From Candidatus Hadarchaeota archaeon (GTDB taxonomy: Archaea; Hadarchaeota; Hadarchaeia; Hadarchaeales; JAGGTB01), in assembly GCA_964384105.1 (NCBI GenBank), contig CAYLJV010000002.1, positions 32,001-96,000 of the forward strand: DNA of 64,000 bases. The letters run 5' to 3'. Below, piece by piece: positions 1,728-54,309 of the stretch. The notes under the pieces are model-generated. The model saw only the letters and a list, made by a program, of their open reading frames with translations. It was not told the DNA's origin and made no database searches. The position numbers were made by a program, and so were the translations under genes. Each line of letters starts with the position of its first letter. The stretch's first letter is position 1.

Positions 1728-3011
1728 GTGAAAATTATGAACAGAAAAATCAAAAAATTTGGTATGATATCATTGCTGCTAGTATTAATTATAGGAACCA
1801 GCCTTTTCACCAACTCACCAATAAATGCACAGGATAACAGAGTGCAACCACCTGACGGTGTATTCGAGAATCGAAACCTGAATAAACCAATACAAATCGA
1901 CGGCGATATAACCATAGAAGGGGATATCGGGCCTGACGGAAACGTGAACGGGAATGGGAATCTAACTATCGGAGGAAACGTCGAAGGAACGATTAGTATC
2001 AATGGAAACGTAAACATAGGTGGTTCAATCGAGCCCGGGGCAAATATTTCCCTCGAGACTCCAGGAACCACTTTGAACGTAGAAGCCGGAATGAATGGAG
2101 GAAACATTGAAGTAAGTGCAGGAAATGTCGAGATTAACATCGAAGAAAACTTAGAGGCCGGAAATATTTCTGCAACAGGTGAAAATTCCAGAGTAAATAT
2201 AGGTGATTCCATAGGTCCAAATTCCAGAATAGAGGGTATTGCCTCAGTTAACGTATCCAAAAACGCTTCGGGCGAAATTGATGTATCAGGTGAAATTTCG
2301 ATAGGTGAAAATCTGAAAGAAGAAGGTAGATTAGTATCGGAAGGTAACATCTCAATTGGCGGAGACTTAGAAGAAGAGGGATCAGTAACATTGGAAACTC
2401 CTGGAAAAACCTTGGAAATTGGAAGAACTTTGAGAGGAAGGGCAACGGTAACTGAGAACGCAAAAGTCTCAATTGGAGATATTCCAGCAGAATCTCCTGT
2501 CAACGTTTCAGTAAATGCTTCGCCTCTTGATGGAGTAGAAATCTCCGTTCAGAACTACATATCAGATCTAGATATAGATATTTCTAATCTTAAAGGAGAT
2601 GTTAACGTAGCGATAGAAAAACCGGAAGGAGAAGTCTACAACATTCAACAGATAGACGTAGAAACCGAGCAGACAACAATTTCCGAAGATGAAATAGAAG
2701 AAGCAAAAATTGTAGTCGATGTGGAAAAATCGTGGTTACAGGAACACGGAATAGAAGCTGAGACTGTCAGAGTTAATAGATTCTTAGAAGATGAAGGAGA
2801 ATGGAAAGAACTTCCAACGGAAGTAATAGGGGAAAACAGCACTCACGTGAAACTTGAAGCAGAAACTCCTGGATTCTCAACATTCTCGATTACTGGAGAA
2901 GCCAGTCCAGAAGAAGGCGCTGCAGAAGAATTACCATGGTTGTTAATCGGGGGAGTAGTAATCATAATTATAGTGATTATAATGGCAATTGTGGCAATTT
3001 CGAGAAGATAA
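1728..3011 (+). CDS. cell-surface protein: signal peptide, Gly/Asn/Ile beta-solenoid repeats, PGF-pre-PGF domain, C-terminal TM anchor
   Basis: N-terminal signal peptide; IxGxI/V repeats; AETPGFSTFSITG motif; hydrophobic tail ending RR. Confidence 0.8.
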   Translation: MKIMNRKIKKFGMISLLLVLIIGTSLFTNSPINAQDNRVQPPDGVFENRNLNKPIQIDGDITIEGDIGPDGNVNGNGNLTIGGNVEGTISINGNVNIGGSIEPGANISLETPGTTLNVEAGMNGGNIEVSAGNVEINIEENLEAGNISATGENSRVNIGDSIGPNSRIEGIASVNVSKNASGEIDVSGEISIGENLKEEGRLVSEGNISIGGDLEEEGSVTLETPGKTLEIGRTLRGRATVTENAKVSIGDIPAESPVNVSVNASPLDGVEISVQNYISDLDIDISNLKGDVNVAIEKPEGEVYNIQQIDVETEQTTISEDEIEEAKIVVDVEKSWLQEHGIEAETVRVNRFLEDEGEWKELPTEVIGENSTHVKLEAETPGFSTFSITGEASPEEGAAEELPWLLIGGVVIIIIVIIMAIVAISRR

Positions 3012-3300: not shown

Positions 3301-3603
3301 TTATCTGGTGTTAAAGTCTAGCATCTTGCCAGATTCTGGATCGATAAGGACCCAAAAGGATACTCCAACTGGTTCTTCGAGTCCCTTCACTCGAACGCAT
3401 TCTCTAAGGTCCCCAGGTTTCACCTCGACCTCCTCGAGGCTCCGCTCGTAGATCTTAGCAGATGTATTACTGGAATCGAAAAAATCTTCTAATGCGATAG
3501 GTTCCCCAACATCCTTCTTGAGAACTATCAAGCTCCTACCATCTTTCTCGAGGACTATCTCATAATCCTCGATTCTAAAGAAAACGGTAAACTGCTCCCC
3601 TCT
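3301..3603 (-). pseudogene. probable 5'-truncated hypothetical gene
   Basis: The frame stays open about 24 codons upstream of the TTG at 3531 (RGEQFTVFFRIEDYEIVLEKDGRS) up to a stop, with no canonical start; it lies about 40 bp from the repeated palindrome. Confidence 0.4.
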
Positions 3604-3642: not shown

Positions 3643-3667
3643 TTTTTGTTACACCCATAACAAAAAA
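3643..3667. repeat. 25-bp palindromic site A, copy 1: TTTTTGTTACACCCATAACAAAAAA
   Basis: Exact reverse complement of 53352-53376; variant at 53529-53554. Confidence 0.9.
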
Positions 3668-3707
3668 TCCCGAAAACAAAAACTACCAAATCGAAGCAAT
3701 ATTTGCC

Positions 3708-3737
3708 GATTTAATATAGGTCACCTATAATTTGAGA
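3708..3737. repeat. 30-bp dif-like palindromic site B, copy 1: GATTTAATATAGGTCACCTATAATTTGAGA
   Basis: Exact reverse complement of 53442-53471. Confidence 0.9.
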
Positions 3738-3846
3738 ACGAATCCAAATCCATCGTAACCATTAATCAGTTCTAGGATTAGAAAAAACTCTCAACTGGTT
3801 TATATCCACAAAGAAATACCCGATGACAGATGGAGGTAGAAATAAT

Positions 3847-36445: not shown

Positions 36446-36521
36446 AGCCCCGTGGTGTAGGGGTCAAGCATACGGGGTTTTGGTCCCCGCGACGGTGGTT
36501 CGAATCCGCCCGGGGCTACCA
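36446..36521 (+). tRNA. tRNA-Gln(TTG)
   Basis: AGCCCCG acceptor stem, CGGGG-TTTTGGT-CCCCG anticodon arm, CCA. Confidence 0.93.
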
Positions 36522-36644: not shown

Positions 36645-36720
36645 AGCCCCGTAGTGTAGTGGTCAATCATGCGAGGTTCTGGTCCTCGTGACGGTGGTTC
36701 GAATCCGCCCGGGGCTACCA
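36645..36720 (+). tRNA. tRNA-Gln(CTG)
   Basis: CGAGG-TTCTGGT-CCTCG anticodon arm, CCA. Confidence 0.93.
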
Positions 36721-40581: not shown

Positions 40582-41718
40582 ATGGAAAATGTTGTTATAG
40601 TTAGATACGGGGAATTACCTCTGAAAAGTAAGCCCGTCAGAAGCAAGTTTAAAAAGAAACTAATAAGGAATATAAAATCCATTCTCGGAGAGATTCCTTC
40701 TAAGATAGAAACAGAAAGAGGGAGAATTTTCATAAAAACCCCTAGACCGGAGGAGGTCTCAAAGCTTTTGGCATACGTTCCGGGAATTGTCTCCTCGAGC
40801 CCAGCTAAAAAAACAAAATCCGAAGTAGAAGAAATCGTGGAACTTTCGAAGGGGATATTCAAAGAGAAATCCACAAAAAAGGGAAGTTTTGCAGTTAGAG
40901 CCCGGAGAACCGGTAATCACGAATTCAGTAGTCAAGATCTAAAACGAATCGTTGGATCTGAAATATTAAAAGAGAATCCCAATTTTAACGTGAATCTTGA
41001 CTCACCAGATTACGAACTCTATATAGAGGTCAGAGGAGAAAATGCTTACATATTTACCAAAAAAATAAGGGGAATAGGCGGACTACCAGCAGGGACCCAA
41101 GGGAAAGTATTAGTAATGTATTCAAAGCCAATTAACGCCCTAGTTAGTTCTTATTTAATGTTAAAAAGAGGAGCCACCGTTTATCCAGTCATTTTCAGTT
41201 CAAAAGAAAGGTATAGTAGTTCCAATGTACTCAAAAAAGCAGAAAATATATTAAAAATCCACCCTCGACTGGAGATCAGAACAGTCGAATACACACACTG
41301 CATGGAAAAAATATCCGAAAAGACAATAAGTGGAACAAGTTGGATAATCTCGCAGAAAATAATTTTTGAAATACTGGAAAAAATATCCGAAAAAATAGGG
41401 GCAAAAGCAATCATCTCCGATTCGGATATAGACCAAATAGCCTCTATCTCCCTCGATAATATCAGGATTATAGAGAAAGATATAGAAATACCCGTATTTT
41501 ACCCCTTGATAGGAATAAAAAAGAAAAAGATATCCGAAATCTCGGAAAAAATACTCGGAGAAAAAATATCGGAAAAGACACCAACCCCTTTCAAAATACC
41601 TTCCGATCTAAACAAAGTACACCCAGAAAAGATCCAAAAAGAAGAGAAGAAAATACCAAAAGAATCCTTGATTAAATCTTCCTTAAAATCGATAAAAATA
41701 CAAAGATTAAGGGGTTAA
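40582..41718 (+). CDS. ThiI-like protein (THUMP domain + degenerate PP-loop domain)
   Basis: IVRYGELPLKS, FAVRARR, GGLPAGTQGK, MLKRG; SGGxDS missing. Confidence 0.85.
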   Translation: MENVVIVRYGELPLKSKPVRSKFKKKLIRNIKSILGEIPSKIETERGRIFIKTPRPEEVSKLLAYVPGIVSSSPAKKTKSEVEEIVELSKGIFKEKSTKKGSFAVRARRTGNHEFSSQDLKRIVGSEILKENPNFNVNLDSPDYELYIEVRGENAYIFTKKIRGIGGLPAGTQGKVLVMYSKPINALVSSYLMLKRGATVYPVIFSSKERYSSSNVLKKAENILKIHPRLEIRTVEYTHCMEKISEKTISGTSWIISQKIIFEILEKISEKIGAKAIISDSDIDQIASISLDNIRIIEKDIEIPVFYPLIGIKKKKISEISEKILGEKISEKTPTPFKIPSDLNKVHPEKIQKEEKKIPKESLIKSSLKSIKIQRLRG

Positions 41719-47610: not shown

Positions 47611-48036
47611 TTATAGAACTTGATCATCCAGATTATTTGACATTTTCCTTAACCTATAAACAGTTACGACCCAAACAACGATGATTATCGCCAAGACTAC
47701 GACTGACATGTACCCTCCGATAATGAAATCGAAGGAGTAAATGTAAGTATCCAATATGATAAAGACAATCGGGATAAGAATTGGAATAAAGAGAGTAACT
47801 ACTACTCCTTCCATAAGAATAATCCATTTATAATCAATTTCTGCAATCCACATAATTAACAAAACGAAAGCTCCCACAGCAAAGAAAGCCCATCCGATTA
47901 TCGTACCTCTTATTAGGTCTTCAGCAAGGTTAAACCATCTCATGCTTATAGCAATAAATAGAAAAAAAGCAACCACTCCAACAGTAAAAACCCTAATTCC
48001 AAGAGATGGATTATCTTGCTCAGAATTTTCTTTCAT
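47611..48036 (-). CDS. hypothetical 4-TM membrane protein
   Basis: Hydrophobic helices; GGAGG RBS. Confidence 0.7.
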   Translation of the reverse strand: MKENSEQDNPSLGIRVFTVGVVAFFLFIAISMRWFNLAEDLIRGTIIGWAFFAVGAFVLLIMWIAEIDYKWIILMEGVVVTLFIPILIPIVFIILDTYIYSFDFIIGGYMSVVVLAIIIVVWVVTVYRLRKMSNNLDDQVL

Positions 48037-48052
48037 CTAACTCCTCCTTGCT

Positions 48053-48334
48053 CTACCGCCCCTTTACGAAATAAACTACGAGAATTACTGTCAAAACAAC
48101 TATTCCCAGAGCCGCTATTTGTACAGTCCACCTTATAAAGAGATTATAGTGGATCCAATCCCCTGGAAGAGCAAGAAAACCGATAGCTGTCAAGATCAAA
48201 ATAAGTCCTATCACCAGTTTTAGCAAAGTATTCTCGCCGTTTTTCAACGTCCTGTAATTATTCTCAGACCCGGCCGACGGGGTGTATCCTTCGCCCTTCC
48301 TAATATTCTTCTCACGTCCTTGCGAAGGTCCTAT
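48053..48334 (-). CDS. hypothetical 2-TM protein
   Basis: Track start TTG 48247; GGAGG RBS points to in-frame ATA 48334. Confidence 0.55.
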   Translation of the reverse strand: MGPSQGREKNIRKGEGYTPSAGSENNYRTLKNGENTLLKLVIGLILILTAIGFLALPGDWIHYNLFIRWTVQIAALGIVVLTVILVVYFVKGR

Positions 48335-48360
48335 TTTAACCGCCTCCCCTAAACTCGTAG

Positions 48361-48585
48361 TTAGCCGTTATTCTCTCTGAGCTCATACCCGATTATCACC
48401 CAAACAAGAACCAGTAATATAAGCGGGCCAAACACTAAAAATGCAGCAAAAGAATCCGCATAGTGCCAAAGAAGAGAGTCCCAAGTCAAAATACTCAAAG
48501 TAATGACAAATACCGGTGGAAAACTAAACACTATCCCCTTCAAGATAGTAATTAGTTTGTCGTCATCTGAAGATTCTTCATTCAT
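48361..48585 (-). CDS. hypothetical 2-TM protein
   Basis: C-terminus VWVIIGYELR resembles VWVVTVYRLR of 47611-48036. Confidence 0.65.
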   Translation of the reverse strand: MNEESSDDDKLITILKGIVFSFPPVFVITLSILTWDSLLWHYADSFAAFLVFGPLILLVLVWVIIGYELRENNG

Positions 48586-48590
48586 TTTAA

Positions 48591-49061
48591 CTAAACCATC
48601 TCAAAAAGAATTTTGTATGAGATTCTTCCAGAGAAATAACCGAAGATAAAGAGAGGAATAACAGTGACAATCAACACAGATCCGGGACTCTCCGCAGGTA
48701 ACTGTCCTTTAATCAAAAATCCGAGTAAAAAAAATATAAAGAGACTAACCCATGTGATTTTTCCAGCCCATGATTCCGAGTTTTCTTTCTCACTTGGTGG
48801 AGAGAGATATGAGAATAAAATAAGAGTGAATGTAGTGGTAGCAAGGGTAATAAAAAAGGACAAAATTAGTGTAAATCCCGAATTTAACGCCTCACCAATC
48901 CAGTTCCACCAAGTCATTCCAGTGAGATAAACATCGATCCAAGAATAGCCATGTCCTCCTAGAAAGAAGAAAACGCCTGGAAAAATAAACACGAAGAGAT
49001 GAGATAACTGGATAGCTAATACAGAAAATTTAATGGAGTCTGACAGTCTCCTCATGACCAT
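48591..49061 (-). CDS. hypothetical 4-TM protein (paralogue of 49471-49962)
   Basis: YLTGMTWWNWI vs YLLYASWWGWL. Confidence 0.7.
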   Translation of the reverse strand: MVMRRLSDSIKFSVLAIQLSHLFVFIFPGVFFFLGGHGYSWIDVYLTGMTWWNWIGEALNSGFTLILSFFITLATTTFTLILFSYLSPPSEKENSESWAGKITWVSLFIFFLLGFLIKGQLPAESPGSVLIVTVIPLFIFGYFSGRISYKILFEMV

Positions 49062-49092
49062 CTTTCTTCGGTTAAAATTGGATTGTGCCCGA

Positions 49093-49129
49093 AGTATAAA
49101 TTAAGTCCCAGAATTGAAACCGAATTTAA
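49093..49129. repeat. 37-bp repeat at a divergent gene junction, copy 1
   Basis: AGTATAAATTAAGTCCCAGAATTGAAACCGAATTTAA; 33/37 identical to 52580-52616. Confidence 0.8.
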
Positions 49130-49165
49130 ATTTCTTGCCCCAGAGAGTTTTTTCCGAGTAAAACT

Positions 49166-49447
49166 ATGAGTTCTGCTTGTGAACAGGAAAAGAATACTAG
49201 GACTGATAGAAAGTATTCTACCCCTCAAAGCCTAAAATACAAAGAGGATACTGAGGGTAGGAGAAAACAAGAAAACGGAAGTCTGGCTAAGTACTGGTTG
49301 ATCTTAGCTGTTACTTTTCTAATAACATTCTTTTTTGCAAGTTTTGCCTCAGAGACTGGCTGGGCGAGGTGGGATTGGAGAACACTATTTTTCTGGCTAC
49401 TGCTTATAGGAGACTTGTCGGGCTTAAGTCTTCTCCTGTTTTTCTAG
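49166..49447 (+). CDS. hypothetical 2-TM protein
   Basis: Charged N-terminus, two hydrophobic segments. Confidence 0.6.
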   Translation: MSSACEQEKNTRTDRKYSTPQSLKYKEDTEGRRKQENGSLAKYWLILAVTFLITFFFASFASETGWARWDWRTLFFWLLLIGDLSGLSLLLFF

Positions 49448-49470
49448 CTCAGGAGGATTTTTGATGAAGT

Positions 49471-49962
49471 TTAGTCCACCGATGGAAATAAATCGTGATA
49501 GAGACTACCCCACAAAAAACACCAGAAGACAATATTCGGAATCCATACTAGAATAACTTTTGGTAGTCGAAAATCATAAGGTGACCCGATGACTAAAATC
49601 CCTATGAAATAATACGGTATTATGCTTAGTAAGGCCAGTAGTCCGCTCTTAAGTCTTCCATCGCTCAAAGGTATTTTTTTCCTCCAGTACGTTAAGATAG
49701 TAAGTATCGCAACAGTCATTAAGACCGGGAGTGCTAACGCTAGAAAATCCTGTAGGAAACTTCCAAAAGATACACCTTCGAATATTATTCTCTGGAGCCA
49801 CCCCCACCAGCTCGCGTAAAGAAGATAAAATTGTTTAGCTATACCATACTGGAACATACCGGTATCAAATTCTTCCAGTAACGGTCCAATAAATGCCGAT
49901 AGATAAGCCATTATAACAGTTGAAAACGCGAACAAGAGAGACTTAAAGCGTCTTCCAAGCAA
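49471..49962 (-). CDS. hypothetical 4-TM protein (paralogue of 48591-49061)
   Basis: Same length class and WWxW motif. Confidence 0.7.
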   Translation of the reverse strand: MLGRRFKSLLFAFSTVIMAYLSAFIGPLLEEFDTGMFQYGIAKQFYLLYASWWGWLQRIIFEGVSFGSFLQDFLALALPVLMTVAILTILTYWRKKIPLSDGRLKSGLLALLSIIPYYFIGILVIGSPYDFRLPKVILVWIPNIVFWCFLWGSLYHDLFPSVD

Positions 49963-50069
49963 CTTCCTACAAGACCCCTAACAAAATTTGTATTAGAAAA
50001 TATACTTAAATTAAGTCCAAAAACTTTAAAAAAGGTAGATTTTAGAAATCATTTATCGGGGGGAGCTCG

Positions 50070-51515
50070 ATTCGACGGAAATCATTACCGTTTCAACATA
50101 CGGCTATAGTTTTAATCTTCATCATAGTAGTCTCTTCGATCCCCATCCCGATAACAAAGGCATTACAGACGGCAGGGAACAGAGAGACCCCCGAAGAGGT
50201 AGCCAGACCTCTGATTACCCACGATATATTTCATATTACCGAAAATATTTTCGTTCCAAGTGGTCCGATAAGGTACAACATAACTGGCGGAATACGAGGT
50301 AACGATCCCGAGATAGCTCTCACGGAAGCTGGGAAAAAAGTGTCGGTAAGTCTCTTTTCATCAAGCCCACACGAGGGACCAATCGAAATCCCGGGTATAC
50401 TGGAGTTTATGCTAGTTGAGGTCGACCAGGTTGGCAATTTTATTAGGGTAGTAGATAGGAAAACGGAGAACGTGGAAAATCTTGGGAGTATGATATGGAG
50501 CACTAGACTGCCAGAAAATAAAGTGGCCAGATACAAATTAGGAGCGATCATTCGGGATGAAGATGGAGATATACGTGGTAAAATAGTATCAACGGTTAAA
50601 TCAATGATACTCGATCTAGATCTAACAGTCAACAAAAAGAGACTTCCCATTGGGGAAAAACTAGAATACAGTATTCACAATAATGGATCAGTCGAAGTTT
50701 CTTATGGATTCCCACCTCACAGAATCAGTTATTGGGAAAACGATGAGTGGATATATGCAAAATGGTTCCACCCTCTTGCAGATTCAGAATTACATAGTCT
50801 CAGATCCGGTAAAACTAGTACATATATCGTAAATTTATCCACTGACTCAATCTCAAATCGGTACTTTAAACTGCTCTACCCACACCTTGTCAATCCCGTT
50901 CCCTTGGGAAATTATAGAGTATCAGTAGGTATTACAGAAGCTGAAGACCAAACAAGTGGAGCACATAAGGATATTTCAATTAGGTTATCAGAGACTTTTG
51001 AGATAACAACTGAAGGCAGTCTTGAGCCAGAGATCATTTTAGATAAAGGGGAATTCCGACCTGGAGAGAATTTTAACTACGCTTTAGTAAATCGAGGAGC
51101 TGCCGAGCTAACTTTTACGAAAGACCCAGACCCCCACGTGATCCAGATGCCCCAGACTATCGAATACTGGAATATGAAAGAATGGGTGAAACCATATTGG
51201 TTGGAAGAATCAGATAAAGAGAACCTTCGAGTTCCTATTAACTATAGCTACAAGGGTCCCCACTACTACAATACAGGATTTGACAATTATAATCACAATA
51301 TCGATCTTTCTGAATTCCGTCCAGGTAAGTATAGACTTAAAATAGAGAACGTTTATGCATTGGGAACGAACGTATCCACCACTGTTATGAAAGAATTCAA
51401 TGTCGAGCCAAAAAATAGTTTATTCTCTAGATTATTAATCATCTTAGGGTTAATTATAGTCGGAAGCGGAATATTTGTCATAATTTTCAAATCTCGAAAT
51501 AAGACTAATCTTTAG
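50070..51515 (+). CDS. surface protein with two Ig-like repeats and C-terminal TM anchor
   Basis: The frame extends 90 codons above GTG 50340 and includes a signal peptide (RRKSLPFQHTAIVLIFIIVVSS...TKA) starting at ATT 50070 after GGGGGAG. Confidence 0.75.
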   Translation: MRRKSLPFQHTAIVLIFIIVVSSIPIPITKALQTAGNRETPEEVARPLITHDIFHITENIFVPSGPIRYNITGGIRGNDPEIALTEAGKKVSVSLFSSSPHEGPIEIPGILEFMLVEVDQVGNFIRVVDRKTENVENLGSMIWSTRLPENKVARYKLGAIIRDEDGDIRGKIVSTVKSMILDLDLTVNKKRLPIGEKLEYSIHNNGSVEVSYGFPPHRISYWENDEWIYAKWFHPLADSELHSLRSGKTSTYIVNLSTDSISNRYFKLLYPHLVNPVPLGNYRVSVGITEAEDQTSGAHKDISIRLSETFEITTEGSLEPEIILDKGEFRPGENFNYALVNRGAAELTFTKDPDPHVIQMPQTIEYWNMKEWVKPYWLEESDKENLRVPINYSYKGPHYYNTGFDNYNHNIDLSEFRPGKYRLKIENVYALGTNVSTTVMKEFNVEPKNSLFSRLLIILGLIIVGSGIFVIIFKSRNKTNL

Positions 51516-51673
51516 ACTCTTAGCAGTTGAAACACCCGTTGTGCATTCTATTCCCTTTTTACTATCACTTACAAGGGCCTTGTGCAAATCTCAATTTTTC
51601 AGTAATTACTAAAAGAATAGGAAGTTGCACAAAATATCTTGATCTACAAATAAAAAAACTAATTCTGGGAATT

Positions 51674-52540
51674 TCAATTCAAAGACTGGACAGTTACTGT
51701 TTCTTGAGGCAGATAAAGTTCTCCCTCTCCAGTGGCGATTACAAGTTTAGGTTCGTCTACCTCCTCAGGGCAAGAATGGGCTACTTCTATCGGTAACGAT
51801 TCTATATTTTCCATATAAATTGGGCGTCCATCCGTCTCCCTATCCCAAGGAGGACGTAGAGAGACTTCTATCTTTTCTGAGGATCTACCAGAAACTATAC
51901 CTAAGTCCCACCGGGGATAGTCAAGATAAACAGTGTGCTTTTCGGGTGTGTAAATACATGCATATAACCTCGGCGGGTCAGTATGTCTGGAGAACAAGAA
52001 ATCATTTTTAACTTCAAGTGTTCCTATGGGTATCGATTCCTCTCCACCTTCCCAAGCTCCTTCGAAACTGACTCTATCCTGAAAATCCAACTCGTAGGAT
52101 GGTTGCGATCCTATTACGTCGAAGGAAACAAAAGCTAGAATAATAATTAACAGAGAAACCAATATTCCTCGCTTCAATCCTTTGCTGATTTTTAATCCTC
52201 TCTGCCACTGATAACCCATTCCAATAAACAAGATCGAGGAGACTACAAGAGCCAAAAATACCGCGTTTGTTCCCAGACTAAAGGTATCAATAATATACCA
52301 AAGGAAGACGATGTAGGATAGCACTGATAACACGTAAAAGAACTTGTCCAGGATTCTCTTATTTATCAGATTACCAGAAACAAGAAAAGTAGGGAACGCT
52401 ATCAACAGAATTATCGATTTTATAGTCGGTGAAAGATCGGCTATTATCTCTCGACCAAAGTAAACAACAGCGACTACACCAAGAGCTATACCCACAATAT
52501 AAAGCAAATCGGAAGCATCAATATCGAAGTCAAGAGCCAA
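51674..52540 (-). CDS. hypothetical 5-TM membrane protein with extracellular domain
   Basis: GAGGAGG RBS; TM helices then acidic domain with two Cys. Confidence 0.75.
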   Translation of the reverse strand: MALDFDIDASDLLYIVGIALGVVAVVYFGREIIADLSPTIKSIILLIAFPTFLVSGNLINKRILDKFFYVLSVLSYIVFLWYIIDTFSLGTNAVFLALVVSSILFIGMGYQWQRGLKISKGLKRGILVSLLIIILAFVSFDVIGSQPSYELDFQDRVSFEGAWEGGEESIPIGTLEVKNDFLFSRHTDPPRLYACIYTPEKHTVYLDYPRWDLGIVSGRSSEKIEVSLRPPWDRETDGRPIYMENIESLPIEVAHSCPEEVDEPKLVIATGEGELYLPQETVTVQSLN

Positions 52541-52579
52541 TTTAGATACCTCCTCGATTTTTAATTAGACGGATATTGT

Positions 52580-52616
52580 AGTATAAATTAAGTTCCAGAA
52601 CTGAAACGAAATTTAA
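52580..52616. repeat. 37-bp repeat at a divergent gene junction, copy 2
   Basis: AGTATAAATTAAGTTCCAGAACTGAAACGAAATTTAA. Confidence 0.8.
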
Positions 52617-52643
52617 GTAACTTATACAAGATAGAATTTCACG

Positions 52644-53342
52644 ATGGGTATCCGAGGAAAAAAGTACTGGATAATTGCGATAATTGTATCATTAGTCGTA
52701 GGACTGGGAACTTACTCTATAGTCAACTCCCTCTCAGAGGAAGAATCGAGGGAACTATTCATAAAAGAGGGTGGAAAACAGGTCGAGCTGGAGAACGTAA
52801 AATACTCGGTCGAAAGAGTCGAGAACTTAATCAAAGAGCACGCCTACCGTTTGGAACTTCGAATTAAGAAGGAGTTCGAGGATATAGAAAATCTTCCCAA
52901 AACTCTGAACTTGAAAATATCGGAAAGCGTCTATCTAAGATCTCTCGAGAATTCGATACTCTACAGAGAAACCAACGAAAGAACAGTAGGTTCCCTGGAC
53001 TGGCTCTTCTCTCCGATCGCATCTGGAGCGGTTTTCGCCGCACTAGCAGCAATTAGACTTCGAAAGCCCGAGACACGAGGACAAGCCGCAACCCTACTTC
53101 TCGAAAATGGATGGGAACAGGCGAGAGTCCGGGACGTGGAATTGTTAGCAGCAATAATCAAGATGAAAAGATTCACTATCCCTGAACTTATGAGTCGTGT
53201 CGGAACTTCGAAGAGCACAACCTATCGGACCGTCAGAGAACTTGCCGAACTGGGTTTAATCGAAGAGACTGAGGAAGAGAAAACTCCTGACAGCGTAAGA
53301 GGAAAACCAAGTAAGGTTTACAGATACACAGAAACCGGTTAA
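52644..53342 (+). CDS. membrane-tethered winged-HTH protein
   Basis: N-terminal TM, second hydrophobic segment, FTIPELMSRVGTSKSTTYRTVRELAELGLIE...RGKPSKVYR. Confidence 0.75.
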   Translation: MGIRGKKYWIIAIIVSLVVGLGTYSIVNSLSEEESRELFIKEGGKQVELENVKYSVERVENLIKEHAYRLELRIKKEFEDIENLPKTLNLKISESVYLRSLENSILYRETNERTVGSLDWLFSPIASGAVFAALAAIRLRKPETRGQAATLLLENGWEQARVRDVELLAAIIKMKRFTIPELMSRVGTSKSTTYRTVRELAELGLIEETEEEKTPDSVRGKPSKVYRYTETG

Positions 53343-53351
53343 AATCAATTA

Positions 53352-53554
53352 TTTTTTGTTATGGGTGTAACAAAAAGCCGGGTTAGTAAAAAATATTGAT
53401 TTTGAAGAACTTTTTAAAAAGTTACAGTCAATTGAGTCCAGTCTCAAATTATAGGTGACCTATATTAAATCCCTAAATATTGATTTAATTTGGAATCAAA
53501 AGCTAATTCGGCGTTTTCTTTTACAAAATTTTTTGTTACGGGCATAACAAAAAA
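53352..53554. repeat. 203-bp composite site: palindrome A (53352-53376), dif-like core B (53442-53471), palindrome A' (53529-53554)
   Basis: A and B are exact inverted copies of 3643-3667 and 3708-3737; A and A' form terminal inverted repeats; extra palindrome AACTTTTTAAAAAGTT at 53408-53423. Confidence 0.85.
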
Positions 53555-53676
53555 CTCTCTCTAATCCTGTATTAATGTGTCAGCCACCACCAATAGGTTA
53601 TTTAAATTTTGTTTCCCGATCGAAACAAAGCCTAAATAGACTCTAACCTCATACCGTCTGGAAATGGAGACTTTTT

Positions 53677-54309
53677 ATGAAATTAAAAGATATTTTCCGG
53701 AAAAAATCCTTCAAATACCCGCTTATTGCGATTATAATACTCTTTTTCCTCTCAATAGTTCTCATAAACGCTAATTTTAACGCCACTAAGAGTAAAACAT
53801 CTATAAACACATCTAAAGAATCCTTTTCGGTTTCTGAATCTGAAATTGAAACGGATCTTAGAGAAAGAGTATTTCTTTATGTAGAAGACCAGTCACTCAA
53901 CGGAACTCTTGATAAAAATCTCCAAGAGTTTTTAAAAGAAACCAGTTCAGATGTCAAATCTTTCTTGAATTTAAAGGAGAGTTTTGGTGGTCCGACTATC
54001 GCTGTTAAAATACTTCGTGAGAAAATTGACTACATCCCACTTTATTCGATGGGTGAAATTGATGTCCTGTTCTTCTATTCCTCATCCGGTGAAACTTCTT
54101 ACTTCGAAAAATTCGTAAGAGAAGAATTTGGCGGGCCTAATGTGACAGTTATTTTTGAATCTTCTGACGGACCCCAAAAAATAGTTAGGGGAAAATTGAC
54201 TCTCAGGGACATCAGTTACGGGATCACGACACCAGGAGGATACAAAAACCGATTGGCGGAACAGATAGCGAGGAGAGTTTCAAACGAAATTAAAGAAATT
54301 TCTTTCTAG
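53677..54309 (+). CDS. hypothetical membrane-anchored protein
   Basis: N-terminal TM. Confidence 0.7.
   Translation: MKLKDIFRKKSFKYPLIAIIILFFLSIVLINANFNATKSKTSINTSKESFSVSESEIETDLRERVFLYVEDQSLNGTLDKNLQEFLKETSSDVKSFLNLKESFGGPTIAVKILREKIDYIPLYSMGEIDVLFFYSSSGETSYFEKFVREEFGGPNVTVIFESSDGPQKIVRGKLTLRDISYGITTPGGYKNRLAEQIARRVSNEIKEISF

Follow-up and report, generated by a model that had tools for sequence, protein, structure and literature searches.

A short palindrome dispersed at transcription-unit edges in Hadarchaeota, a possible boundary or recombination site of small gene modules

The stretch of DNA analysed here (64 kb, hereafter the window) is part of an ordinary archaeal chromosome of the Hadarchaeota and carries the trp operon, shikimate-pathway genes, the thermosome, TBP, riboflavin genes, a homocysteine-synthesis pair and four tRNAs. 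None of its 78 ORFs matches a recombinase family. A search of the window against Rfam at the gathering threshold recovered the four tRNAs only, with no E-value below 0.79 near either of the two loci described below, and BLASTN of positions 53340-53570 against plasmid and phage collections gave no match. Repeated sequences elsewhere in the window include two tRNA-Gln genes (36446-36521 and 36645-36720, anticodons TTG and CTG), which are 199 nt apart and 89% identical and whose stretches both end in CCA in the repeat listing, and TGGAAAAAATATCCGAAAA, present in three copies (two exact, one at 84%) between 41303 and 41576, within a ThiI-like ORF (40582-41718).

Two loci of the window share a non-coding arrangement built from a short palindrome, A, and a longer block, B (Table 1). 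The right locus is preceded by a block of eight successive ORFs (47611-53342), none of which has a Pfam match at E<=1e-5 and several of which give weak membrane-protein hits; the last of them, the gene of a winged helix-turn-helix (wHTH) protein, brings the block directly to the left of the A copy named A1. In the same region, a 65-nt direct repeat (49093-49157 and 52580-52644; 75% identity overall, 89% over the first 37 nt) stands directly upstream of two plus-strand ORFs, namely a 93-aa ORF at 49166 and the wHTH gene at 52644, and may be a shared promoter or leader. At the left locus, A lies 111 nt upstream of a 76-aa ORF (3531..3301) and 180 nt downstream of the stop codon of an NTP-transferase gene; near this locus, a 427-aa ORF (1728-3011) contains a PGF-pre-PGF domain (NCBIfam TIGR04213, E=1e-27) and is likely a surface protein. 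The 49.7 kb that separate the two B blocks are housekeeping DNA and do not constitute a mobile element. Read in the local direction of transcription, both loci follow the same order, that is, the stop codon of the upstream gene, B, A, some 110-125 nt and the next start codon, to which the right locus adds A1. Moreover, no paralogy between the genes flanking the left and the right locus was detected by tBLASTx, the part in common being the B and A unit only.

Table 1. Positions of the palindromes, the repeated block and the associated genes (window coordinates, or coordinates within loci numbered L)
Feature	Position	Strand	Description
A, left copy	3643..3668 (motif 3643-3666)		Arms TTTTTGTTA/TAACAAAAA, plus-strand spacer CACCCA; terminal part of the left B+A unit
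A1	53351..53376 (motif 53353-53376)		Spacer TGGGTG; 10 nt after the wHTH gene stop codon
A2	53529..53554 (motif 53530-53553)		Spacer CGGGCA; 123 nt upstream of the ATG at 53677
B, left copy	3686..3737	-	30-nt block 3708-3737 identical to the right copy
B, right copy	53442..53493	+	Identical 30-nt block 53442-53471
Perfect 16-bp palindrome AACTTTTTAAAAAGTT	53408..53423		Within the A1-A2 interval; degenerate counterpart in the left unit
Left non-coding B+A unit	3643..3773	-	Strong homology to the right copy from B to A, weak about 35 nt past B
Neighbouring gene, 232-aa protein	52644..53342	+	C-terminal winged helix-turn-helix, TrmB/MarR-like; weak Lrs14/Sta1-like matches; stop abuts A1
Downstream 210-aa ORF	53677..54309	+	No family match; unrelated to the ORF downstream of the left unit
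186-aa protein family (P0001)	L050:3026-3586; L024:284-853; L116; L079:3-332		A at both gene ends (L024, L050)

Palindrome A has the form TTTTTGTTA-N6-TAACAAAAA and occurs exactly three times in the window, against 0.03 copies expected by chance; none of 100 shuffled sequences contained three or more, and no weaker copy with up to three mismatches is present in the window. The left A and A1 are exact reverse complements over 26 nt, and A2 is a spacer variant. In this respect the sequence-only reading that preceded our analysis was correct, as it was for the total span of 203 bp at the right locus and for the perfect 16-bp palindrome enclosed in it. B is a 52-nt inverted repeat conserved at 88% between the two loci, enclosing a 30-nt block that is identical, and inverted, in the two copies; this block in turn holds a 15-bp palindrome, TATAGGT-C-ACCTATA.

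When the reverse complement of the left locus is aligned with the right locus, B, a spacer and A prove to be a single non-coding unit, about 110-150 nt long, of which the window has two copies in inverted orientation. The homology begins weakly some 35 nt upstream of B, continues across a spacer that is conserved in part and carries a 17-nt indel, and ends at the outer edge of A, which is the copy at 3643 in the left locus and A2 (53530) in the right one. Since the two loci align as one unit from B to A, B and A together are a duplicated block; since the alignment ends at A2 on the right, it is A2 that is homologous by position to the left A, and not A1, even though A1 has the same spacer sequence as the left A. 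The right unit simply adjoins a further A, placed after the wHTH gene, and this gives the 53-kb locus its bracketed look. Consequently, the earlier claim that the spacers between the motifs are not conserved does not hold, and the view of motifs selected independently rather than left by a duplication has to be divided, as A is selected in its own right (see below) and the B and A unit is duplicated. The distances between A and B in the window are 17, 36 and 65 nt. At the left locus, a search for a decayed second A on the far side of B was negative (alignment score 14, below the shuffle mean of 15.1). B was likewise rejected as a small coding gene, as the 30-aa ORF on the right is reduced to 13 codons on the left and three of the four changed codons are non-synonymous. 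As B is palindromic and TATA-rich, our guess from its sequence is that it could be a promoter or operator segment.

To establish the distribution of A, genome contigs were scanned with a search that required exact arms, so that ascertainment is biased and the identity of the arms across copies is imposed by the search itself. At least 119 loci with A were recovered, at least 21 of them from seven Hadarchaeota MAGs; after removal of the overlapping duplicates L029 and L056, the Hadarchaeota set comprises at least 27 copies in at least 19 loci of seven genomes. Among the matches listed, 19 of the 27 Hadarchaeota copies carry the spacer CACCCA/TGGGTG, and the others have one- or two-base variants of it or the fully palindromic spacers CACGTG and CATATG. 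The 98 listed loci from other organisms, mostly A+T-rich bacteria, have one A each and in no case this spacer (0/98). According to base counts over the listed matches, the element consists of exact 9-bp arms, which adjoining T/A lengthens to about 10-11 bp each, and a 6-bp spacer, for a total of 24-28 bp, a geometry that falls within that of simple tyrosine-recombinase cores (inverted arms of about 9-13 bp, spacer of 6-8 bp). An error-tolerant regular expression retrieved, among the matches listed, 30 exact copies and one with a single error; a degenerate copy in L068 (near position 2101) is not among these.

Flanks of about 150 to 3000 nt were compared, with only some 300 nt available for 39 loci. 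The flanks of the listed Hadarchaeota copies are mutually unrelated, and no sequence resembling B was found in any of the 119 listed loci, including the flanks of all 27 Hadarchaeota copies. One of the loci, L055, is syntenic with the window beside the left site, its oxidoreductase gene showing 69-76% nucleotide identity. Between the orthologous loci L024 and L050, which derive from two species, three copies of A are identical save for a single difference in one copy, and the intergenic DNA around them has diverged; the retention of A in diverged surroundings indicates that it is under constraint and not drifting. A is an autonomous element conserved across Hadarchaeota genomes, located in intergenic DNA at the edges of transcription units. 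No description of it was found in the literature on Hadarchaeota palindromes and integrons, on the motif letters or on archaeal REP/RAYT systems.

Gene positions around A were taken from crude longest-ORF calls. On this basis, 12 of 30 copies among the matches listed lie no more than 30 nt from a stop codon, four lie between convergent and three between divergent ORFs. Other copies precede start codons by 40-120 nt and, where the sequence was read, stand just upstream of TATA-like boxes, and many are solitary, between housekeeping genes. The orientation of the spacer relative to the neighbouring or upstream gene is mixed, which makes a strand-specific RNA role unlikely, and a function exerted on the transcript from a fixed strand was rejected on this ground. 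As single-stranded DNA, A would fold into a hairpin of only -5.6 to -7.5 kcal/mol at 37 °C, and such weakness favours recognition as duplex DNA. Runs of five to six T accompany A on both strands. In 13 Hadarchaeota loci, Rfam identified one tRNA and nothing else. Genes for integrases, transposases or other recombinases were found neither in the nine loci whose flanks extend up to 3 kb nor in the window; ParB-type genes are absent from the locus flanks searched, and no homologue of the wHTH protein lies beside A in any other locus examined.

Several loci contain small accessory modules bracketed by copies of A. Specifically, a HEPN and MNT pair lies between two copies in L028; in L055, one A is followed by PIN and MazE/AbrB antitoxin genes, a second A, a Fic gene and a third A; in L068, the degenerate A precedes PIN and RHH antitoxin genes (the latter a weak match), an A and, about 400 nt further on, another. 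On the single contig of L095 and L096, two copies enclose a truncated vapB, a remnant, and 2 kb away a further A precedes vapB and the start of a PIN-like ORF, which was read by eye and has no family match. A CopG-type RHH ORF follows A in L025, and in both L024 and L050 a gene for a protein of 186/189 aa lies between two copies, with a third 63-82 nt beyond. Apart from short non-coding segments, the cargo thus comprises vapBC, HEPN-MNT, Fic and the 186-aa gene specific to the lineage, placed on both strands, and A, as pdif sites do, bounds discrete modules in different contexts. By hand count among the matches listed, A copies no more than 3 kb apart are co-oriented in eight of nine scorable adjacent pairs, the count omitting L050, as an orthologue of L024, and L068, where the spacer of one partner is symmetric; the only pair in the other arrangement is L095 and L096.

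The region beyond the 186/189-aa gene has a peculiar organisation of its own. In L024 (890-1110) and L050 (3640-3810), two inverted boxes, TCCAGTGGAAAC with a G-rich tail, flank an A+T-rich stretch, and the three copies of A are interleaved with them. The boxes presumably correspond to the type of archaeal origin recognition boxes (ORB), which they resemble, and the region may be a replication origin; it adjoins the TyrRS gene and lies two genes from a ParA/MinD-like ATPase gene.

The gene of the 186-aa protein is tightly flanked by A. According to the ORF calls in L024 and L050, A is 0-1 nt from its stop codon and 3-4 nt from its start; in L116, A lies 4 nt from the ATG of a gene of the same family, and in L079 an A with the CATATG spacer lies 1 nt after the stop codon of a distant homologue. 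Moreover, three over-extended homologues (P0017, P0018 and P0027) have N-terminal residues that would fit translation of an A-like element. None of the 28 family members is named; those with a source name, seven in all, are labelled hypothetical proteins of MSBL1 archaeon. The protein matches no Pfam or NCBIfam family and no Y1/HUH family; consequently, A does not belong to a RAYT system as this is defined. An AlphaFold model with a pLDDT of 93.8 found nothing in the PDB at E<=0.001; PaaX came closest, with a query-normalised TM-score of 0.41. Several small fold matches of the predicted structure, for example CutA and GhoS, look ferredoxin-like to judge from their names. In the ESM Atlas the model retrieves solely an unnamed archaeal cluster, with a score of 0.88.

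A further set of observations concerns the limits of homology between loci, which were determined by all-against-all BLASTN of the listed Hadarchaeota loci. Six pairs share A in different contexts (L024/L116, L050/L116, L055/L087, L055/L068, L084/L095 and L095/L096), and in all six, among the matches listed, the match ends 0-5 nt from the edge of A; for L055/L068 it should be borne in mind that L068 has a run of N near the homology. In the 60-nt flanks of A, 34-52 positions match on one side and 14-29 on the other. In three of the six pairs the spacer is inverted relative to the homologous flank. One of the six matches, a 115-nt segment shared by two contigs of one MAG (L084:63-176 and L095:432-546), is 90% identical and ends exactly at A in both; the two spacers differ solely by a swap of the central two bases (GG against CC), which, to judge from the letters, looks like a loop inversion within the palindrome.

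Taken together, these data lead us to propose, with a probability of roughly 40%, that A is a stand-alone, protein-recognised boundary or recombination site of the dif-module kind, and that A1-B-A2 is a non-coding module between two such sites. A would be a protein-binding site in duplex DNA, of the simple kind used by tyrosine recombinases, in which a short asymmetric spacer separates two inverted arms; modules would be exchanged, inserted or lost at it, as at the pdif sites of Acinetobacter dif modules. In the window, the right locus would represent a small non-coding module set between two A boundary sites; the same B cargo would be present again at the left locus, there with a single A. 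B would then be cargo and not the crossover core. The idea of a small non-autonomous element, one of those offered by the sequence-only reading, comes close to the comparative data, once the elements are taken to be bounded by copies of A. The inverted arms with a conserved asymmetric spacer, the tight family (three exact copies in the window and none with one to three mismatches), the bracketed cargo, the co-orientation of neighbours and the mosaic junctions fit a module-exchange site of the tyrosine-recombinase type. In addition, this proposal accommodates an autonomous, lineage-wide A, mostly with one spacer, whose listed copies elsewhere lack B; its position at gene edges; the end of homology at A both in the six listed pairs and in the window's own B unit; the retention of A between L024 and L050; and the weakness of its single-stranded hairpin.

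Several observations weigh against reading A as a recombination or boundary site. As no recombinase gene turned up in the window, nor in those nine loci whose flanks reach up to 3 kb, the mechanism operating at A is one that we infer. The spacer flips in three of six junctions are predicted by loop inversion of a palindrome and not by conservative recombination at a site with an asymmetric spacer; at the left B unit, A is present on just one side, and many copies are solitary between housekeeping genes. Runs of T on both strands are equally compatible with a bidirectional archaeal terminator, and the junctions may just reflect transcription-unit ends that tolerate rearrangement and are marked by A. 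Moreover, A matches the dif of P. abyssi at just 10-14 of 28 positions, not above the window background, and the scan that supplied the copies was biased by the exact arms it required and by the roughly 300-nt flanks of 39 loci.

The main alternative, which we regard as somewhat less likely, is that A serves as REP-like punctuation, in the form of a bidirectional terminator, an insulator or a promoter-proximal element read by a dedicated host protein, with the 186-aa protein as its partner and with no movement of modules. Size, palindromy and extragenic location agree with the REPs treated in the available part of PMC3733652, and the share of listed copies near stop codons or between convergent ORFs, together with the T5-6 runs on both strands, is in keeping with punctuation. 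The same holds for the 186-aa family, given the gene abutted by A at both ends in L024 and L050, the further copies at the L116 and L079 homologues, the N-termini of the three over-extended homologues and the 28 members whose named sources are all MSBL1 archaeon hypothetical proteins; furthermore, the orthologous copies of L024 and L050 are kept, and spacer flips would be harmless. Against it, the flanks of A lack the GTAG/CGTC tag, and the co-orientation of eight of nine listed neighbouring pairs is at odds with the inverted pairing of REPINs and BIMEs. The 186-aa protein has no Y1/HUH match, and its model no PDB match at E<=0.001. The exact joining of unrelated cargo at A in six of six listed pairs is left unexplained by punctuation itself.

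It is improbable that A is the operator of a global transcription factor, such as the wHTH protein of 52644-53342, controlling toxin-antitoxin and other accessory genes. A palindrome with a 6-bp spacer conserved across species would be appropriate for an operator, as would the several copies placed 40-120 nt upstream of start codons and just upstream of TATA-like boxes, and the wHTH gene ends 10 nt from A1. However, among the 30 listed copies four are between convergent ORFs and 12 directly follow stop codons, the neighbouring genes have no functional theme except for the toxin-antitoxin modules, and wHTH homologues are absent beside A in the other loci. In addition, an asymmetric yet conserved spacer and the lack of degenerate sites in the window are unlike typical regulons.

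Far less credible is the architecture originally suggested for the right locus, in which B would be a dif-like crossover core and the copies of A accessory sites of a synaptic complex of the res or cer/psi type, or a terminus organiser. B does have a perfect 15-bp palindrome, and by hand count its arm CTATATTAAAT agrees at 9 of 11 positions with the arm on the XerD side of the pdif sites tabulated in the available part of PMC13141974, which probably explains the dif-like impression gained at first; the accessible text of PMC2958812 has dif sites of Thermococcales flanked by inverted repeats, and that of PMC11840125 reports two XerA-binding sites in Thermoplasma. Nevertheless, when compared with the P. 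abyssi 28-mer, whose sequence was taken from PMC2958812, B agrees at 15 of 28 positions, and 287 positions of the window score as high or higher. The dyad of B is organised as 7-1-7, with a 1-bp centre, against the 11-6-11 arms and spacer of dif, and B occurs twice within 50 kb, against a single dif per chromosome. The two copies are inverted, 49.7 kb apart around housekeeping genes, and no recombinase gene is present nearby or elsewhere in the window. By its sequence, then, B is not detectably dif-like. As for the accessory role of A, all 27 listed copies elsewhere in Hadarchaeota stand without B, and the spacing from A to B varies within the window; a widespread occurrence of A without B is the very outcome that the proponent of the composite site had named as contradicting it.

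Least credible of all is a centromere-like (parS-type) or origin-associated binding site, for which speak the CACGTG-spacer form of A, which we take to resemble the 16-bp parS palindrome of bacteria, with about 14 of 16 positions alike, and the three copies interleaved with the two inverted ORB-like boxes of L024 and L050, two genes from the ParA/MinD-like ATPase gene, but against which stand the spread of copies over many contigs beside unrelated genes, with no ParB-like gene seen, the deviation of the common CACCCA form from parS at its centre and the window itself, where three copies of A coexist with no full ORB-like box (four hits, each with one mismatch and without the G-rich tail).

If A is indeed a site of recombination or a boundary, no earlier case of a short, dispersed site of module exchange would have been described for an archaeal chromosome, and A would explain how accessory genes, toxin-antitoxin genes among them, come to lie between housekeeping genes in these small genomes. 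Its 24-bp duplex would in addition offer a means of identifying the protein that recognises it, in a phylum of which, to our knowledge, there are no cultured representatives. Should A prove to be a terminator, an insulator or a REP-like element instead, it would still constitute a cis-element of the whole lineage, and one with a candidate partner protein of unknown fold. One may go further and imagine a cassette system of the Hadarchaeota, in which toxin-antitoxin pairs, Fic, the lineage-specific gene with the ferredoxin-like fold and non-coding segments such as the B unit of the window are joined at Xer-type A sites and shuffled by a host recombinase, possibly XerA or a protein of a new family; we advance this only tentatively, and consider it unlikely as a whole.

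Among known systems, the likeness to res and cer/psi sites is superficial, being confined to a central dyad with flanking repeats; A and B have no fixed spacing and no genes for a resolvase or accessory proteins, and A is distributed independently through the genome. The Xer/dif systems of the archaea P. abyssi and T. kodakarensis share with A the 11-6-11 architecture and A+T-rich arms, and in Thermococcales the dif site has flanking inverted repeats, as far as the available part of PMC2958812 describes it. Archaeal dif is, however, unique in each chromosome, whereas A is multi-copy and B occurs twice, and neither rises above the window background in similarity to P. abyssi dif.

REPs are extragenic palindromes of 20-40 bp, mostly downstream of genes, and a single gene flanked by the repeats belongs to the system (PMC3733652, from the portion available). 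A is similar in its size, its extragenic location and the one repeat-flanked gene, that of the 186-aa protein. Unlike A, whose flanks show only T/A next to the arms, REPs have the GTAG/CGTC tag and form inverted dimers; the RAYT protein is a Y1 (HUH) transposase, whereas the A-flanked protein has no Y1/HUH signature. REPs have been described in bacteria, and the studies retrieved for REP/RAYT systems in archaea are, to judge from titles and abstracts, all bacterial.

The attC sites of integrons are structured single-strand sites of about 55-140 nt with R and L boxes, accompanied by an IntI gene, and their cassettes lie in one orientation. Integron cassettes resemble the A modules in being compact ORFs bounded by a repeated palindrome of recombination type, with toxin-antitoxin pairs common and non-coding cassettes also existing. 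On the other hand, attC is longer and more structured than A, which is 24-28 bp long and has no Rfam match; no IntI gene lies by A, the copies of A are dispersed and not gathered in a single array, and their cargo is of mixed orientation. Integrons have been reported in Hadarchaeota (PMC9668308), and the one Hadarchaeota attC that Ghaly et al. assayed for recombination (primer, Data S10), which is about 90 nt long and G+C-rich, is unrelated to A. The arms of A do not occur in the supplement text of the same paper in the form obtained (about 141,000 characters, possibly incomplete).

The system that A recalls most directly is that of the pdif modules of Acinetobacter, where, according to the available part of PMC13141974, sites of 11-6-11 structure delimit modules, toxin-antitoxin pairs among others, and must have matching spacers to recombine. 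Both kinds of site are short, their inverted arms measuring about 11 bp and their spacer 6 bp, and in both, small accessory modules, often toxin-antitoxin pairs, are found between sites in varying contexts with the junction at the site. The identity of the spacer, which matters for pdif recombination in the sections of PMC13141974 at our disposal, finds a parallel in the conserved spacer of A. The two sequences are unrelated, and pdif sites have two distinct arms and alternate in inverse orientation, whereas A has like arms and neighbours co-oriented in eight of nine pairs among the matches listed. The Acinetobacter system is bacterial and plasmid-borne, with XerCD experimentally shown, whereas A resides in an archaeal chromosome, with no recombinase gene found in the window or the flanks searched. 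If the cassette system outlined above were confirmed, it would represent an archaeal chromosomal counterpart of Acinetobacter dif modules and of integrons, operating through a much simpler site.
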